Source of the DNA: Alphaproteobacteria bacterium
Lineage (GTDB): Bacteria; Pseudomonadota; Alphaproteobacteria; UBA828
Direction of reading: 5' to 3'
DNA length: 64,000 bases
NCBI GenBank assembly: GCA_965221125.1
Contig: CBDCRW010000003.1
Span: 1-64,000 of the forward strand
In this document: piece after piece, positions 1-20,502 of the stretch
Layout: every line of letters starts with the position of its first letter
Position numbering within the stretch: position 1 is the first letter of the stretch
Notes under the pieces: model-generated
Told to the model about the DNA's origin: nothing
Seen by the model: the letters and a program-made list of their open reading frames with translations, nothing else
Databases searched by the model: none
Translations under genes and position numbers: made by a program

Positions 1-3000
1 GCGGTCCTCGCCGCCCCGGCCGCCGCGCAGACGCCCAACGCCGACGGCTCCTACACGGTGTCCCAAGGCTGGCCGCTCAAGCCTTCGGGCCTCGAGGGCG
101 GTGACAAGTTTCGGTTGCTCTTCGTTACTTCCACGAGGCGCAACGCGCAGTCGAGCAACATCGACGATTACAACACTTTTGTGCAGGACAGGGCCGCGGC
201 CGGGCATACGGCCATCCGTCTCTACAGCGCGCAATTCAGGGTGCTCGGCTCGACCTCCACGGTCGATGCGCGCGACAACACCGAGACCACCGGAACGGGC
301 GTGCCGATCTACTGGATGGATGGGCAGAAAGCTGCGGACAACTACGCCGACTTCTATGACGGCACCTGGGACAGTGGCAGCCACTCGGTTAATGAAGACG
401 GGGCATTTAAAAGGGCGTTTGTGTGGACGGGCAGCAATGCAGATGGGACAAAATTCAACAATCAATATCTTGGCGCCGGTACGGTGAGACAGGGTTCCGT
501 GCTCTATGCTGCGCTTTCCCATGGTCAGTTTGCGTCCAACGCTACAAGATCCTTATATGCCCTCTCTCCGGTGTTCCAGGTGGAGCCACCCCCCGCCGAG
601 CTGTCCCTGATCTGGACGGAGACCATTCCGGCACCGCCCGACCCTAACCCGAACCTATCGACGGGCCGTCCTGTTGCGAAGCAGGTCAAGGAGGGCGATT
701 CGGGCACGAGGGACGTGCATTTCTACGTCCGCACCGAGCGTCTGCATTCATCGAAGCTGCCGTTCCGTGTGTGCGTGTCGGGCAACGCCACGCAGTCCAC
801 CACGAACAGCCCGCGGCCGGAAGACGGGGACGACTACCAGCTGGTGGTGGACAATGCGGTGCAGGGCCGGTGCGTCGACACGTCGATCCCGGCCAATACG
901 CGCTACAAGCGGATGACGATCCGGGTTCTCAACGACGACCGTCTGGAGGACCGGTTCCGGGACACGGAGCAGGTGCTCCTGACCCTGTCGCAGGCTCCGG
1001 GCAGTCCGCTTCCCTCGCCGTACAGGATCGTCTCCCGGGAAAGCGGGTACTGGAAGCTGCAGCTGAACATCGTCGACGACGACTTCGGTCAGCAGCCGGT
1101 CCAGTTTTCTCCCGCCGAGTACGAGATCGTCCACGCGAAGTCGGTGGTCGGCCGCGCGCAGACAAGGCGCGTGAAGGAGGCGCACCGCGGCGGGCGCGTC
1201 GGGCTCATGTTCACGAAGGGGCCGGACTACACCCCCTACACCGTGACCTACAGGGTGGTGCATGCCGAGAGCACGGCGACCTACGGCGCCGACTACACGC
1301 TGGTCGGCTACAACCGGAACACCGACCGGGGCACGATCCGGGTGCCGCGGCCGAGTGAGCGGCAGGGCGGCGCCGCCCTCCGGGTGAACGTCGTCGACGA
1401 CCGCCGGGTCGAGGGCGAGGAGCAGTTCGTCATCGAGATGGTGAGTGTCTCGAGCCCGTTATGGGTGAACAAGGAGAACGACCGCCACAAGCTCTCCATT
1501 AAGGTCGACGACAACAGCCCGCGGAGCGAGCTGAATTTCGACTGGCTGGAGCGGACCGTGCAGGAAGGCCACGGGGCCGACACCCATGACGTCCGGGTGT
1601 CGCTGCGGCCGCAGCGCGGGTCGAACAGCGATCCCCGGCTGCCCGAGGACACCCACTTCGAGTATTGCGTGGAGAGTTCCGCCACGCTGGGGACGGAGTA
1701 TCAGAGACTCTACCGTCCCGCCACGCCGGGTTCGGACTACGAGATAACCAACCGTGCCGGCGACTTCGTCGACCGGACCGGGGGGACGGAGTGCTGGCTC
1801 GCCACCATCCCGGCGGGCCAGACGACGCTGCGCCTGATGACGCTCCGGGTTCTTTCCGACAAGGACATGCGGGAGCGGCCCGAGCGGGTGACGGTTCGCC
1901 TGAAGCCGAGCACGGTGTCGGCCAAGCCGACCTCGGGCTTCATGGGCATCGTGCCCATCCCGCCCAGGGGCCAGGCCCAGCCGCCCTACACGTCCTCGAT
2001 GCTGATCATCAAGGACGACTTCCCCTTTGTGCGGGTCGAGCTGTCCGGCATCGACGGGTCGGGAAGGCTGCTTTACGACGTGCGGGTCACGAGCGGCTGG
2101 ACGGTGGGCTACCCGAGGATTCACTGGGTGGTGGAGGACGACAGCAGCGGCACGATCGGGAGCGGCTCGTTCTCGTTCCAGAGGGGGCAATACCGCCCTT
2201 CCAGGACGGTGCGCTTCAAGCCTCCGCTCTATGATGCGTCGCATAACGGCTATATGATTTTCAGGCTGACGGACGGCGAGTACCGGCTGGCGGATCCCTC
2301 GCACGGAACCGTCTGCTTGCCGCTCGGCTTCCACGGTTCGTGTCCCCAGCTCCAGACGCCGGGCAGCAGCGACGACGCTGTCGAGGTCCCGGACACGCCG
2401 GTCGCCAACGTCCAGGTGACGGCGGTCGACGCCGCCAGCGCGACGGTGACGTGGGACGCGGTGGAGCACGCAACGTCCTACCGGGTGGAGTACGAGTCGA
2501 CCGGCACCCTGGCGTATCAGGGGAACTACGTTCAGGGCGCCTCGAACGGCCACACCGGCACGAGCTGGACGTTCACCCACAATGCCGCCGAGGCCATGAC
2601 GCTCACTGTGACCGTGACGCCGGAGGTCCGGGAGGACGGCAATGTGCAGCTGTTCGACGACCTCGCGGGGACGGCGACCATCGACGTGGCGCCCGCCGGG
2701 ACGCAGGACACCGTTCAGGCGCACGGCTGCGATCTGACATCGGTCAAGGCGGACGTGAACCGCTATATCGGGGAGACGCAGTACGGTAATGCGCACGTGG
2801 CGCGCTGGAAGCAGGCACTGGCCGGGCTGAACGAAGAGACCGGCGGCATGACGGCGGCGCAGGCGCGGCAGATGATGGCGACGTATTCGCCGGGCCGCTG
2901 GCAGCCGGTGGTGGACGCGCTCGACTGCCTGGAGGAAGCTGCCGCGGCGCAGCCGGAGACGCCGGCGGCGGTTCCCGAGGTTACGGTCTCGGGCGGCAGC

Positions 3001-16554: not shown

Positions 16555-17523
16555 CTATTCGATGCTGTCGTGCGTGCAGGCCTCGTCGAGGGCGAATCGC
16601 AGCGCCTGCGCTTCGCCCACCGAGACCTCGCGGAACTTGATGGATTCGTTGGGCTTCATCTGCCCGAGCTTCCAGAAGGCGGCGGACGGCACCGTGTAGG
16701 GGCAGATGAAGCCGCCCATGCTGGGGCCGTCGTTCATCAGGATGATCGGCGTCTGGCCGCCCAGGTTCACCGCGCCCAGCGGATAGCCCTGGTCGATGAT
16801 GTTGGAGGGGAAGTCGCCGTGCTCGGGCAGCTTGTCGGTGGCCTTCTCGGTGAAGGTCCAGTCCGGCCCCCTGAGCCGATAGCCGGTGCGGTCGCTCCGC
16901 GCTTCGAGCAGCCATGCCGTCTCCGTGAAGCGGTCGTGGCCGGCGTCGTCGATCCAGTCGTCGTTGGGGCCCCGCACCGCTTCGACCTCCCAGGTCTTGC
17001 CGCCCGGGAAGGCCGGCCGCGCGCGCTCCGCGACCCTGCGGCCCGGCGTGCCGGCGGCCTCCTTGACCGGGAGCACCTGCCCCGCCTGCACCGCGTGGCC
17101 ATCCAGCCCGCCGACGCCGGCCTTGTGGAAGGTCGACGCCGAGCCGAGCCATTGCGGCGCGTCGATGCCGCCCGCCACAGCCAGATAGCCGCGCGCGCCG
17201 GCGACCGCCGGGCCCATCACCAGCGTCTGACCGGCCTCCACTGCGACGCTCTCCCACATCGGTATGGGCTGCCCGTCGAGGATCGGGCGCATGTTGGCTC
17301 CCGTCACCGCGATCACGCCGGCCCGCTCGAAGCGGATCGTCGGGCCCATGAACTGAGCCTCCAGCCCCGGCGCGCCCTCGTCGTTGCCGACCACGAGATT
17401 GGCCAGCCGGAACGACCACATGTCCATCGGGCCGGAGGGCGGAAACCCCTGGTTCCAGTAGCCGATGCGGCCGGGAAAATCCTGGATGCTGGTCTCAAGG
17501 CCCGGCTTGACGATCTCAAGCAT
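16555..17523 (-). CDS. Carboxyltransferase / 5-oxoprolinase subunit C (PxpC/KipA, urea-amidolyase-like)
   Basis: TSIQDFPGRIGYW..PPSGPMD, SDRTGYRL, PIILMNDGPSMGGF. Confidence 0.87.
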   Translation of the reverse strand: MLEIVKPGLETSIQDFPGRIGYWNQGFPPSGPMDMWSFRLANLVVGNDEGAPGLEAQFMGPTIRFERAGVIAVTGANMRPILDGQPIPMWESVAVEAGQTLVMGPAVAGARGYLAVAGGIDAPQWLGSASTFHKAGVGGLDGHAVQAGQVLPVKEAAGTPGRRVAERARPAFPGGKTWEVEAVRGPNDDWIDDAGHDRFTETAWLLEARSDRTGYRLRGPDWTFTEKATDKLPEHGDFPSNIIDQGYPLGAVNLGGQTPIILMNDGPSMGGFICPYTVPSAAFWKLGQMKPNESIKFREVSVGEAQALRFALDEACTHDSIE

Positions 17524-17535
17524 GGACGCGCGCTC

Positions 17536-18465
17536 CTAGTTCAGGTGCTTGAGGTACTGGTTCACGAAATCGAAGCCGATGAGCTTGCAATAGAGACCCA
17601 TCAGCCGCTCCGTCAACGGGCCGGGGATCCTCCGCTCGCCGAAGGGCACGTCGTTGATGGTCGCCACCGGGCAGATGCAGAAGCTGGTGGACGTGATGAA
17701 GGCCTCGTCGGCGCCGTGCGCGTCGAAGAGGTCGAGGTCGCACTTCACCACCTCGATCTCCGCCTCCTCGGCAAGCTCCAGCACGGTCTCGCGGCTGATG
17801 CCGTTGAGCACGTAGCGGTCCTGCGGCGTGTAGAGCACGCCGTCGTCGACGAGAAAGATGTTCGAGCCGACGCCCTCGGAGAGATTGCCGTTGTGGTCGA
17901 GGAACAGCGCCAGGGCATTGGGATCACGGCGGCGCACCTCGTCGTTGCCGACGAACAGGCTCAGGTAGTTGTGGGTCTTCGCCCTGGGTGAGATCGAATC
18001 CGGCGCGGCCCGGCGGTTCGAGGGAATCATCAGCGGAATGCCGTCGCGGTAGTAGTGGGCCCGCTGGGCGATGGGAAGCGGCGTGCAGTCGATGATGAGC
18101 ACAGGGTCGGTCGAGCCGTGGAAATCGCCGCCCGCAGGCTCGAGCCCGCGGGAGATGCGCTGAAAAACCCAGTAGTCGTCGTCCGGCCCCAGCAGGTGCA
18201 GGTTGCGGGCGAGCACCTCCTCGGTGTGGCGCTTCATCTCCGACGGCGCCATGCCGGGGTCGATCCGGAGGTAACGCAGGGTCTTGTAGAAGCGCACGAT
18301 GTGCTCTTCGAGCTTGAAGATGCGGTGTCCGAAGGTGCGGGTCGTGTCGAAGGCGCCGTCGCCGTAGCGGAAACTTCGATCGCGGAAGGAGACCAGGGCC
18401 CGGCTCTCCGGCACGATCTCCCCGTTGAAGTAGCAGACCCGCTCGTTCGCGCGTTCAGCGACCAT
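17536..18465 (-). CDS. Class IV PLP aminotransferase (branched-chain/D-amino acid type)
   Basis: DRSFRYGDGAFDTTRT, AKTHNYL, EGVGSNIF, LNGISR, ADEAFITST. Confidence 0.9.
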   Translation of the reverse strand: MVAERANERVCYFNGEIVPESRALVSFRDRSFRYGDGAFDTTRTFGHRIFKLEEHIVRFYKTLRYLRIDPGMAPSEMKRHTEEVLARNLHLLGPDDDYWVFQRISRGLEPAGGDFHGSTDPVLIIDCTPLPIAQRAHYYRDGIPLMIPSNRRAAPDSISPRAKTHNYLSLFVGNDEVRRRDPNALALFLDHNGNLSEGVGSNIFLVDDGVLYTPQDRYVLNGISRETVLELAEEAEIEVVKCDLDLFDAHGADEAFITSTSFCICPVATINDVPFGERRIPGPLTERLMGLYCKLIGFDFVNQYLKHLN

Positions 18466-18557
18466 CCCTTCGCCCCCCGAACCTTCCGACTCTCCTGCCG
18501 GCCGGGGCGCGATCATGGCGCAAAAGCCCGGACGGTGCGAGTGCCCAGCGCGCGCCC

Positions 18558-19097
18558 TTATATGACACGGGGCGGCCGGCGCACCACCAGGCAGCGCGCC
18601 AGCATGTCGTGCAGGCCCTGCTTGCGGCGGTTGAAGGCGACCGCGATACAGGCGGCGACGGCGGCGAATCCGACGACGTAATTCAGACCGACGACCATGC
18701 TGACGAGGCCGGGAAGCCAGAGCGGCCAGCAACGAAAGATCGCCACGTGCGGCGAGATACGGGCGCCGTCGAGCCCCATGACCCGAAGCCCCAGCATGCG
18801 CTTGCCTATGGTCGCCTGGGCCCGCCCGCTCTCCTGCAGCGCCGTGTAGACACCGAGGGCGACGCCGAAGACTGCGGTGCCGAGCGTAGACAGCGCGTAG
18901 CTCACGACCTCCAGCCGGGCGCCGTCGCTCTCGGAAACATGCGTGGTGGTCTTCACCAGGTCGGGCCAGAGGAACGAGCCCACGAGGTAGACGCCCACCA
19001 GCACGATGATCGTGTCGATGACCCACGCCGCGACGCGCCGCCAGAAGCCGGCGGGGACGACGCCCAGTGTCGCGCCCTCCGGCGCTCCGTCGGTCAC
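18558..19097 (-). CDS. RDD family membrane protein
   Basis: AGFWRRVAAWVID, QATIGKRMLGLRV, KQGLHDMLA. Confidence 0.9.
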   Translation of the reverse strand: MTDGAPEGATLGVVPAGFWRRVAAWVIDTIIVLVGVYLVGSFLWPDLVKTTTHVSESDGARLEVVSYALSTLGTAVFGVALGVYTALQESGRAQATIGKRMLGLRVMGLDGARISPHVAIFRCWPLWLPGLVSMVVGLNYVVGFAAVAACIAVAFNRRKQGLHDMLARCLVVRRPPRVI

Positions 19098-19111
19098 GGG
19101 GCCGTAACGTT

Positions 19112-19142
19112 GGAAGGGCCGCCCGGTTGCGGCGGCCCTTCC
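19112..19142 (-). terminator. 12-bp GC-rich hairpin, possible terminator of the mini transcript
   Basis: GGAAGGGCCGCC-N7-GGCGGCCCTTCC; no U tract. Confidence 0.5.
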
Positions 19143-19178
19143 CCGTCAATCCGCGATCCGCAGATCGCGTCGTCACCG

Positions 19179-19253
19179 TCAGCCGTGGGCCCCATCGCAG
19201 GGGGAGACCCAGTTCACGGTGACCGCCGATCGCGGTTTACGACAGTCTGACAC
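19179..19253 (-). CDS. Putative 24-aa peptide MSDCRKPRSAVTVNWVSPCDGAHG (or sRNA) with an extended Shine-Dalgarno
   Basis: GAAAGGAGGTGATCCA immediately before GTG; own promoter-like motif upstream and hairpins downstream. Confidence 0.55.
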   Translation of the reverse strand: MSDCRKPRSAVTVNWVSPCDGAHG

Positions 19254-19287
19254 TGGATCACCTCCTTTCGTTGTTGACGACACCGCG

Positions 19288-19317
19288 TATATGGCGCGCC
19301 CGACCTGGCCGTGCAAG
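19288..19317 (-). promoter_or_regulatory. Sigma70/sigma32-type promoter for the mini transcript
   Basis: CTTGCAC-N17-CATATA on the minus strand. Confidence 0.55.
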
Positions 19318-19322
19318 CGCCA

Positions 19323-19427
19323 TCAAGTGGCCGATGGCGTCGCAGGTCTCGGCACGTTGTTCCAGCCCTCGCCGATCACCTCGCCGTCGCGCACGATGAT
19401 CGTCGCGCAGCAGCCTTCGTGGTCCAT
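19323..19427 (-). pseudogene. Nucleoside/guanine deaminase stub
   Basis: RBS plus MDHEG..ATIIVRDGEVIGEGWNNV, then a frameshifted ETCDAIGH; HxE/PCxxC core missing. Confidence 0.65.
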
Positions 19428-19441
19428 CGTCGCCTCCCCTG

Positions 19442-20401
19442 TCATCCCTTGCGGCCAGCCACCGCCTCCGCAAGCACGCACAGGATTTCGAACATCATGG
19501 TGGCGCCCACGAGCGCCGTGTTGCCGCTCGGGTCGAAGGGCGGCGCCACCTCCACCACGTCGCCGCCCACCAGATTGAGACCGCGCGCACCCCGCAGCAT
19601 GCGCTGCGCCTCGTGGGTCGAAAAACCGCCGATCTCGGGCGTGCCGGTGCCCGGCGCGTAGACCGGATCGAGCCCGTCCACGTCGAAGCTGATGTAGGTC
19701 GGGCCGTCGCCGACGACGGCGCGCGCCTCGGCCACCACCTTCTCCCAGCCGATGTCGAAATACTCCTCGATGGTGATGACGCGCATGCCCGAATCGTGCG
19801 CGAAGTCCATGTCGTGGAGGTCGTAGACCGAGCCGCGAATGCCGATCTGGATGGTGCGCTTCGGGTCGAGCAGGCCCTCCTCGACCGCCCGGCGGAAAAG
19901 CGTGCCGTGCGTGATCTTGTAGCCCCCGAAGTAGCTGTCCCAGGTATCGGAATGAGCGTCGAAATGGATCAGGCCGACGGGCCGGTCCTTGGCGATCGCC
20001 CGCATGATCGGGAGCGTGATGAGGTGGTCGCCGCCGGCCGAGAGCGGCACCGCGCCGGCCTCGTGCAGCGTGGTGAAGAAGCGCTCGACGCGCCCGATGG
20101 TGTCGTTGAGGTCGATGGGGTTGACGCTGGCGTCGCCGCAGTCGGCGACCCGGCAAAGCTCGTAGGGGCAGATGCCGAGCACGTGATGGGTCCGCCGCAT
20201 CAGGCTCGACATGTTGCGAATCTCGCGCGGGCCGTGGCGGGCGCCAGCACGGTTGGTGGTGCCGTTGTCCCAGGGCACGCCGACCAGCGCGATGTCCACG
20301 GCCGAGAAGTCGGTGACGTGCGGCAGCCGCATGAAGGTCGGCATCGCGCTGAAGCGCGGCATGTCCATGCCGCTCACCGGCTCGTAAAAGCCCTCACTCA
20401 T
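19442..20401 (-). CDS. Ureohydrolase, agmatinase/guanidinopropionase (GpuA-like)
   Basis: GARHGPREIRNMSSLMR, GGDHLIT, HFDAHSD, SFDVDGLDP, PGTGTPE. Confidence 0.93.
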   Translation of the reverse strand: MSEGFYEPVSGMDMPRFSAMPTFMRLPHVTDFSAVDIALVGVPWDNGTTNRAGARHGPREIRNMSSLMRRTHHVLGICPYELCRVADCGDASVNPIDLNDTIGRVERFFTTLHEAGAVPLSAGGDHLITLPIMRAIAKDRPVGLIHFDAHSDTWDSYFGGYKITHGTLFRRAVEEGLLDPKRTIQIGIRGSVYDLHDMDFAHDSGMRVITIEEYFDIGWEKVVAEARAVVGDGPTYISFDVDGLDPVYAPGTGTPEIGGFSTHEAQRMLRGARGLNLVGGDVVEVAPPFDPSGNTALVGATMMFEILCVLAEAVAGRKG

Positions 20402-20502
20402 CGCTGGCGTCTCCTTCCCTTCTCGGCCGCGACGTCAGGGTCGCGCACCCTGCGGTCGTGCTCGGTCCAGTTGATTTCGGCCACGCGCACGGGGCGGGTC
20501 AT
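20398..20502 (-). pseudogene. Creatininase-family N-terminal stub
   Basis: RBS GAGGAGG plus MTRPVRVAEINWTEHDRRVRD, like creatininase N-termini (ELxWxEYxxRV); only 34 aa, stop overlaps the ureohydrolase start. Confidence 0.55.

Follow-up and report, generated by a model that had tools for sequence, protein, structure and literature searches.

The small mRNA rreB of Bradyrhizobiaceae, described by Hahn et al. in 2016 (RNA Biol 14:1353, PMC5711450; cited throughout from parts of the paper), is 165 nt long and carries a small open reading frame (sORF) of 14 codons. Its "17c" region of 17 nucleotides perfectly complements the 3' end of 16S rRNA and takes in the initial base of its start codon, GTG, and its ribosome-binding site (RBS) is predicted to be double-stranded save for five 5' nucleotides. 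The RNA is found in the P100/ribosome pellet, co-sediments with 30S on sucrose gradients and binds 30S strongly. Its translation, followed with rreB-egfp fusions, is weak and is hindered both by the long Shine-Dalgarno (SD) sequence and by the GTG, and a GUG-to-UAG exchange prolongs the half-life of the RNA from 10 to 37 min. Growth is unchanged upon rreB overexpression, and the RNA is far scarcer than ribosomes. The synthetic peptides RreB and RreR are unstructured, and putative overproduction of RreB is without effect on growth. Hahn et al. called the rreB promoter RpoD-like, proposed that the RNA docks through a toehold, and see rre peptides as conserved within clades. They reported analogues, each with a 16-17-nt complement and an sORF, in Caulobacterales, Rhizobiales, Rhodobacterales (rreR, 18 codons) and Rhodospirillales, with a genomic context that varies outside Bradyrhizobiaceae. 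For the small RNA CC2171, passages of a Methylorubrum preprint (bioRxiv 10.1101/2022.01.24.477521) report expression in Caulobacter and a Northern signal in M. extorquens, and state that no inducing condition was found.

We analyzed an element on the minus strand of the window, by which we mean the whole 64,000-nt stretch of DNA under study. The rre-type element at 19115-19276 is the local copy of an already described alphaproteobacterial small RNA, a family that was described as an sRNA in Caulobacter and that a 2016 paper presented as small mRNAs with a unique 17-nt SD. Its striking 17-nt feature has already been published and is therefore not to be counted as a discovery.

Anatomy of the locus

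The first-pass annotation of this DNA had described a stand-alone unit made up of a promoter-like motif, a leader, a GTG-started ORF of 24 codons with two Cys, and two hairpins, and all of these are present in the sequence (Table 1). As first read, the promoter-like motif comprised CTTGCA(C) at 19317-19311 and CATATA at 19293-19288, with a spacer of 16-17 nt. The 17-mer and the start codon (19253-19251) have G19253 in common, as the last base of the one and the first of the other. The 24-codon sORF lies in frame with a listed 45-aa TTG ORF. Past its stop codon, the 7-bp hairpin (19169-19152) is almost unchanging across an alignment of 18 sequences of the genus (17 relatives and the window), in all of which GCTTGC and CGCGCCATATAC are also identical. 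By eye, no SD precedes the start of the RDD gene downstream.

Table 1. Features of the rre-type locus, in coordinates of the 64,000-nt window.
Feature	Position	Strand	Basis or remark
-35-like hexamer CTTGCA, then C at 19311	19312..19317	minus	read in sequence
-10-like GCCATAT, within CGCGCCATATAC	19289..19295	minus	16 nt past the -35; read in sequence
Candidate RNA 5' end (weak hint)	19278	minus	end of one relative's RNA-library contig; Rfam match begins at 19276
A/C-rich leader TCAACAAC	19270..19277	minus	read in sequence
17-mer GAAAGGAGGTGATCCAG, complement of the 16S rRNA 3' end (17c region)	19253..19269	minus	sequence and own 16S gene
sORF MSDCRKPRSAVTVNWVSPCDGAHG, GTG start, 24 codons, two Cys	19179..19253	minus	TGA stop at 19181-19179
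Internal mimic of the 16S 3' end ACUGGGUCUCCCCCUG (codons 14-19)	19198..19213	minus	partner of 17c region and start codon in the minimum-free-energy (MFE) fold
7-bp hairpin CGCGAUC-UGCG-GAUCGCG, past the stop codon	19152..19169	minus	sequence and MFE fold
GC-rich terminal hairpin, 12-13 bp, terminator-like, no U run	19112..19142	minus	sequence and MFE fold
Rfam RF01867 (CC2171) match	19115..19276	minus	model positions 1-159 of 159, 62.1 bits
RDD-family membrane protein gene	18558..19097	minus	Pfam PF06271, E 1e-22; start 14 nt past the terminal hairpin

Complementarity to the 16S rRNA tail

Ordinary SD pairing extends over about 4-8 nt. At this locus, all 17 nucleotides of the 17-mer complement the 3' end of the 16S gene in the same assembly, and the exact complementarity noted at first pass thus holds against the organism's own rRNA. 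Throughout the 4.58-Mb assembly, the exact 17-mer occurs at two sites, 19269-19253 on the minus strand of the window and G000:C4:567590-567606, the latter being the final 16-17 bases of an Rfam SSU rRNA match (locus L002). With up to three mismatches allowed, the window holds one match against 0.06 expected, and at least one match arose in 6 of 100 shuffles; a chance origin of the 17-mer is unlikely. Identity to the 16S gene ends after the 17 nt, and the flanks of L002 differ. The resulting mRNA-rRNA duplex of 17 bp would be much longer than ordinary SD pairing, and the complementarity is kept across much of one bacterial class.

Family identity and distribution

A permissive Rfam scan matched the element to RF01867 over all 159 model positions (62.1 bits, E 2.5e-12), and this is the only match of the family in the genome at E <0.1 (next best, E 0.1 and 0.17). 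The Rfam consensus opens with the same leader, the identical 17-mer and GUGUC, and closes with the same type of hairpin. Rfam's own rule would leave the element unannotated because its score lies below the gathering score of 75; most relatives that look genuine also fall under that value, which is exceeded by just 3 of 19 matched loci in a chosen set and by 5 of 24 in a class sample. The chosen set comprised 20 hand-picked loci representing the motif-bearing lineages, over which the Rfam library was run. RF01867 matched 19 of them at full length, with 96.8 bits in Methylobacterium, 88.5 in Bosea and 82.9 in Roseiarcus, 49.4 and 47.4 bits at two 14-codon rreB-type loci adjoining a tRNA, and 37-40 bits at three Rhodobacterales loci with an rreR-type frame of 18 codons; the one of the 20 that it did not match is an Azospirillum locus with a 59-codon frame. 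Every score is owed in good part to the invariant 5' portion and to the terminal hairpin, so that weak matches call for caution. By sequence comparison, RF01867 and rre are one and the same family.

The first-pass annotation had suggested a comparison with Rfam and had taken a match to an already described family as counting against its reading; such a match exists (RF01867/CC2171 and, in parts of PMC5711450, rre). Within the literature searched, we did not find the link between RF01867 and rre in print. Hahn et al. 2016 (PMC5711450) contains no mention of "Rfam" or "Landt", the Methylorubrum preprint (bioRxiv 10.1101/2022.01.24.477521) contains none of "Shine", "16S" or "rreB", and the remaining papers found that name CC2171 or RF01867 merely list the family. 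For later work on rre function, the search turned up just citations from the same laboratory. The literatures on "sRNA CC2171" and on the "rre small mRNA" concern one subject, and the Rfam description could take an update.

Conservation across Alphaproteobacteria, which had been proposed as a check on the element, is substantiated at several ranks. One copy of RF01867 was found in each of 17 of the 20 other genomes of the genus, and the family of this genome has it in 19 of 24 genomes. Of 11 further families sampled from the class, 3 had it, and the only other family in the same order lacked it in all five genomes. An even sample of the class, searched under strict filters, gave matches at E <=0.001 in 23 out of 150 other alphaproteobacterial families, mostly in larger genomes. 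Scanning 185,579 species genomes with a pattern (a 15-nt core followed by N-R-T-G-T) returned at least 115 loci; among the matches listed, those with a named class are alphaproteobacterial, save for vague "Proteobacteria" labels and one metagenome-assembled genome labeled Gammaproteobacteria. Most lineages, like the Rfam consensus, have a CAACAA-like leader ahead of the 17-mer.

RNA structure

The 177-nt RNA folds with an MFE of -89.7 kcal/mol (z -4.4), and none of 200 shuffled sequences folds as well. In the MFE fold, ACUGGGUCUCCCCCUG, a stretch within the sORF that resembles the 16S tail itself, base-pairs with both the 17c region and the start codon. The duplex of 17c region and mimic is predicted at -18.3 kcal/mol, against -13.7 +/- 1.6 for shuffled partners. 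Among the elements with 23-26 codons, the best partner of the SD has the same location (nt +37 to +41) and the sequence CCUGGAUC...GCCUC. In an alignment of 37 relatives, 30-37 retain the SD:mimic helix (UGAUCC-AG : CUGGAUC). Compensatory changes occur in L086 (A-U to G-C) and in L014 (G-C to A-U), an AT-rich relative with an ATG start; these are the only two of the 37 sequences whose 5' strand strays from the 16S complement, and both compensate. Covariation in this helix rests on two single sequences because the 16S sequence fixes the 5' strand. The fold predicted here agrees with the toehold proposal made for rreB in the parts of Hahn et al. (PMC5711450) that we cite.

Compensatory changes were found at all five tested pairs of the terminal hairpin in the 37 relatives. 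Rfam further models a long-range helix between codons 3-5 and GACAAUG ahead of the terminator, paired in 84.8% of cases. This helix is short and often broken in the genus, and its covariation is weak, since 35 of 500 shuffles reach the same score; we dropped it as clear covariation support because it does not stand clearly above the shuffles.

Reading frame and selection

We surveyed the frame behind the 17-mer at 137 sites, made up of the window, 21 loci of relatives and 115 scan loci among the matches listed. In this set, the frame past the start spans 14-28 codons at 133 sites and 48-60 at four, and the start codon is GTG at 80 and ATG at 57; since the search pattern required a start codon, only the frame length is informative. 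Among the 135 distinct sequences from the matches listed, frame 0 is never closed ahead of codon 14 and has ended by codon 28 in 97%. The +1 and +2 frames of the same matches reach a stop by codon 28 in 65-67%, often within 1-11 codons, and their tenth percentiles are 5 and 1 codons; kindred sequences in this set are not independent. In the genus, the sORF is open at 24 codons in all 18 loci, and start and stop keep their function through changes of codon (GTG 16, ATG 2; TGA 17, TAA 1). The fixed position of the stop in the clade sets is partly a matter of construction, because the sets were picked by ORF length.

The peptides are clade-specific, and those of different orders are unrelated. 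Sphingomonadales encode 18 residues (MSHGSA...), Rhodobacterales another 18 (MSRVILERGVGT...) and rreB-type loci 14 (MS.(x)KRCHLAGIAR), and a peptide of 23-26 residues (MSHC...W[IV]...) occurs in many Hyphomicrobiales, in Acetobacteraceae and in this genus. Neither the peptide of the window nor those of two relatives fell into a Pfam or NCBIfam family (the L007 query was shifted by one codon at its ends). Neither Cys is fixed in the genus: Cys4 is replaced by Tyr or Ser, and Cys19 by Ser, Leu or Trp.

Selection tests were run on small sets of kindred sequences. Sixteen of the 18 genus sORFs are distinct; their variable columns are spread over the three codon positions as 10/14/10, and their codon variants comprise 9 synonymous and 37 non-synonymous changes (for random single changes, the expected synonymous fraction is 0.26). 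At the 14 gap-free loci, the sORF shows per-site differences of 0.028/0.133/0.066 at positions 1/2/3 and a synonymous fraction of 0.21, whereas the adjacent RDD gene at the same loci shows the usual protein signature (0.132/0.098/0.267; synonymous fraction 0.65). Synonymous fractions elsewhere are 0.26 for the Sphingomonadales type, 0.32 for the 25-codon type and 0.39 for the Rhodobacterales type, in which the codons of Ser2, Gly9 and Gly11 change at the third position while the residue is kept. These patterns indicate that in this genus selection maintains the RNA and the open frame, not the amino-acid sequence; the substitutions in Rhodobacterales leave room for a functional peptide there.

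An apparent peptide motif, MS[HD]C...W[IV], was considered and dropped as a conserved peptide, because its Trp codon belongs to the SD:mimic helix and its His-Cys codons to the Rfam long-range helix, and because the substitution patterns are not protein-like. The invariant Trp15 is thus explained at the level of RNA. Such a selection pattern favors the RNA and the act of initiation over the peptide, and it narrows the range of worthwhile experiments.

Promoter, transcripts and gene neighborhood

The hexamer CTTGCA matches the -35 motifs of both RpoH1 and RpoH2 at 5 of 6 positions, and GCCATAT matches the -10 motif of RpoH1 at 5 of 7 positions and that of RpoH2 at 4 of 7 (motifs of Barnett et al. 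as quoted in PMC4843759). The resemblance to sigma-32 promoters seen at first pass is therefore real, but it is not separable in silico from a sigma-70-type promoter. Schlüter et al. (PMC3616915) stress the overlap, in S. meliloti, between the consensus motifs for sigma-70 and RpoH and their need for experimental validation; because of this overlap, we gave up the choice between the two from sequence. By eye, motifs resembling CTT...N16-17...CC(C/T)ATAT are also present in other lineages. Scans for E. coli-type sigma-70 promoters and for simple terminators, both uninformative in a high-GC alphaproteobacterium, listed neither here; the terminal hairpin escapes such a scan because it has no T run.

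Together, the promoter-like motif and the covarying terminal hairpin predict a transcript of ~170 nt. Four metatranscriptome runs of one study contain parts of this stretch as contigs, the only form of these data considered. A 166-nt contig from an RNA library spans 19105-19270 with no differences; in two runs, contigs of 246-260 nt span 19102-19325 and then diverge; and one run gave a 337-nt contig from a relative that shows 17 differences and extends from 18962 to 19278, where adapter-like letters begin. DNA carry-over or upstream read-through may lie behind the contigs that cover the promoter (to 19325). The contigs are compatible with a small RNA that starts near 19278 and with some read-through into the RDD gene, and they prove neither.

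The upstream neighbors are an agmatinase-like gene of the arginase family (PF00491) and, as a 34-codon remnant, a cytidine-deaminase-family gene, which relatives carry in full (156 residues, PF00383). With positions 17500-20500 of the window as the query, a plasmid collection returned matches to the agmatinase only, at 72-77% identity. The RDD gene lies downstream on the same strand in all 18 genus loci and in none of 119 loci outside the genus. Between terminal hairpin and RDD gene, the gap is ~14 nt in the window and at 11 other loci, which therefore have no room for a separate RDD promoter; six genus loci have 30-80 nt more. This tight rre-RDD arrangement offers a concrete, testable downstream readout.

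Interpretation and alternatives

We conclude, with a probability of roughly 0.82, that the locus is an orthologue of the rre/CC2171 small mRNA, that is, a ribosome-docking, mimic-gated and poorly translated RNA of ~170 nt under RNA-level selection. A conserved promoter of sigma-70 or sigma-32 type would give rise to a stand-alone RNA from ~19278 to ~19110, ending in the GC-rich hairpin. Ten nucleotides from its 5' end, the 17-nt stretch would pair with the whole single-stranded tail of the 16S rRNA, the G of GTG forming the last pair, and by analogy with Bradyrhizobium rreB the RNA would dock to 30S. In the free RNA, the mimic (19213-19198) would hold most of the 17c stretch and the start codon in a helix, leaving the first few 17c bases free as a toehold, so that the 16S tail would have to displace the mimic to dock. 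As suggested by rreB, the over-long duplex and the GTG would make translation of the sORF inefficient, and initiation would be coupled to decay of the RNA. Read-through would perhaps also feed the RDD gene in this genus. Our best guess is that the element is a ribosome-gated regulatory RNA and not a peptide gene.

Among the alternatives, one gives the peptide the leading part: the functional product would be the 24 residues, possibly stress-induced, and the long SD would just tune their amount. The frame lengths in 133 of the 137 sites (among the matches listed), the exchanges of GTG for ATG and TGA for TAA in the genus without loss of function, the weak translation detected for rreB-egfp (in the cited parts of PMC5711450) and the third-position variation in Rhodobacterales all speak for it. 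The genus sORF, however, has no third-position excess; its synonymous fraction lies at or below the random value, against 0.65 for RDD; the Sphingomonadales type has 0.26 and the 25-codon set 0.32. Both Cys are variable, the peptides of different orders are unrelated and fall into no Pfam or NCBIfam family, and the invariant Trp15 codon sits in a covarying RNA helix. The parts of PMC5711450 cited also describe RreB and RreR as unstructured and putative RreB overproduction as having no effect on growth. We regard this alternative as quite improbable, and the highly translated stress peptide imagined at first pass is contradicted, as the long SD and GTG of rreB suppress translation (same parts of PMC5711450), selection of the protein type is missing and the Cys are not conserved. 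An origin in a chance SD-like sequence, a stray 16S fragment or an assembly or primer artefact would fit the identity of the 17-mer to the 16S 3' end on the opposite strand, but that identity stops after 17 nt, the flanks of L002 differ, and the whole 160-nt element recurs in 17 of 20 genus genomes, syntenic there and found class-wide, which makes it negligible.

Two further alternatives keep the RNA at the center and differ in what it would do. As chiefly a cis-acting leader in this genus, the element would let the RDD gene be expressed from the rre promoter through read-through of the hairpin, at a level set by ribosome binding or sORF translation. The constant position of RDD downstream in 18 of 18 genus loci, the gap of ~14 nt without a visible SD in the window and 11 others, the lack of a U run after the terminal hairpin and a relative's RNA-library contig unbroken from 19278 into RDD (18962) fit such a role. 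The contig, however, does not prove a single transcript merely by covering two features, and six genus loci have the longer spacer. A discrete RNA of ~165 nt in Bradyrhizobium, the Northern signal of CC2171 in Methylorubrum and the varied context outside Bradyrhizobiaceae also stand against it (parts of PMC5711450 and of the preprint). Because RDD adjoins the element only in this genus (0 of 119 loci elsewhere), a leader role cannot be family-wide; the suggestion made at first pass that the element controls RDD is thus possible locally, and as the chief function it is unlikely. The other alternative is a bulk decoy or sponge that titrates 30S or blocks the anti-SD under stress. A perfect complement spanning the whole single-stranded 16S tail, the strong binding of rreB to 30S (parts of PMC5711450) and a promoter resembling RpoH-type motifs would suit it. 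Yet rreB overproduction leaves growth unaltered and ribosomes far outnumber the RNA (same parts of PMC5711450), the gene is single-copy, the type of promoter is not decidable in silico, and, according to the preprint (bioRxiv 10.1101/2022.01.24.477521), no condition inducing CC2171 was found. Of the ribosome-sequestering sRNA first proposed, ribosome binding would fit the co-sedimentation of rreB with 30S, while bulk sequestering is disfavored by the unchanged growth and low abundance and is very unlikely.

A bolder version of the ribosome-gated RNA, which we offer tentatively and hold to be more doubtful than not by a good way, would make the peptide irrelevant altogether. Elements of the rre/CC2171 family would then be effectively non-coding switches, closed by the 16S mimic and opened only by free 30S via the 5' toehold, that report the idle 30S pool or the state of the 3' end, with their own decay and, here, RDD read-through as the output. 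If so, the apparent conservation of the peptide (MSHC..., Trp15) would be the shadow of RNA helices.

Comparison with known systems

Dual-function sRNAs are short structured RNAs that bear a translated sORF. The element likewise combines a short structured RNA with an sORF, but unlike theirs, its hallmark is pairing with the ribosome and not with mRNAs, no trans target being known. Rfam classes RF01867 as "Gene; sRNA" and handles it as non-coding, and the preprint passages on the family mention no 16S complementarity and no sORF.

Like the local element, the rreR RNAs of the Rhodobacter/Roseobacter clade have an extended SD ahead of GTG and an sORF, and they match RF01867 at full length, albeit weakly (37-40 bits). 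They differ in having 18 codons and another peptide (MSRVILERGVGT...), a promoter that looks sigma-70-like and bears a conserved palindrome, and their strongest SD partner far 3' of the sORF.

The closest counterpart is rreB. Its sORF has 14 codons as against 24 here, and the two peptides are unrelated; in rreB-type loci the SD helix has its partner at about codon 11 instead of codons 14-19; and rreB adjoins tRNA-Gly, whereas agmatinase, deaminase and RDD genes surround the element of the window. For rreB, 30S binding, weak translation and start-codon-dependent turnover are experimental (parts of PMC5711450), and the local element is known from sequence. In the features given in those parts of the paper, the two are alike: rreB is a stand-alone RNA of ~165 nt that has a promoter and a terminator of its own, as is predicted for the local element, each has a perfect 17-nt complement to the 16S tail that includes the G of GTG, followed by a tiny sORF, and each has an RBS that is mostly double-stranded save for its 5' nucleotides, as the MFE fold predicts for the RNA described here.

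Genomic neighborhood of the rre element

The rre element of the window (rre/CC2171 small mRNA, Rfam RF01867) is followed by a gene encoding an RDD membrane protein, and no Shine-Dalgarno sequence was visible by eye in the interval separating the two. The hairpin-to-RDD spacing of the window held in 12 of the 18 genus loci, the window included, the remaining six being longer by 30–80 nt. In most genus loci (15/18), the agmatinase gene was separated from the rre element by a complete gene for a deaminase-family protein of 156 residues. In the window, 28 alignable residues of this protein are left (67.9% identity to residues 24–51).

The same genome harbors a second complement of the 16S rRNA tail on contig C4. 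No ATG, GTG or TTG was present at start-codon distance from this site, which scored just 19.7 bits against RF01867. A 27-codon Cys-rich ORF with a CxxC...CxxC pattern lies ~110 nt downstream of it.

Coordinates of features in the window and in the two further loci
Feature	Position	Strand	Detail
Gap between terminal hairpin and RDD gene	window 19097-19112	-	14 nt before RDD gene start
Cytidine/deoxycytidylate-deaminase-family gene remnant	window 19323-19427	-	34 codons
Near-perfect 16S-tail complement	G000:C4:660600-660616 = L003 about 1501-1517	-	16/17, GAAAGGAGGTGATCCGG
rre element in L014	about 1493-1673	+	RF01867 60.7 bits

Variation among related loci

The rre element was retained at locus L014, in a ~1.6-Mb, AT-rich genome from the same GTDB family. 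Its 17-mer complementary to the 16S rRNA 3' end carries a single G-for-A change, matched by a change in the internal mimic (the stretch of the small ORF resembling the 16S tail), and its 25-codon frame (MSNCLK...IWIVTS...) starts with ATG.

Upstream of the 17-mer, the eight Rhodobacterales-type loci inspected by eye (L087, L050, L121, L138, L030, L067, L141, and L063) shared a TTGACA -35 box immediately followed by a conserved palindrome-like stretch, ACAC-AAAATC-TGTG, which may be an operator site. Sphingomonadales-type loci (e.g. L039, L051, and L080) contained an exact 16S complement of only 15 nt, because their ATG is preceded by CCG, as well as a longer, hairpin-containing leader and a CTTG...TCACA-type motif farther upstream.

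In four loci (L092, L125, L069, and L127), the same 17-mer and start were followed by frames of 48–60 codons. L092 had no match to RF01867. The long frames of L092 and L125, both Azospirillum-type, had signal-peptide-like N-termini; a plasmid-borne Azospirillum rre that starts with ATG is mentioned by Hahn et al. (PMC5711450).
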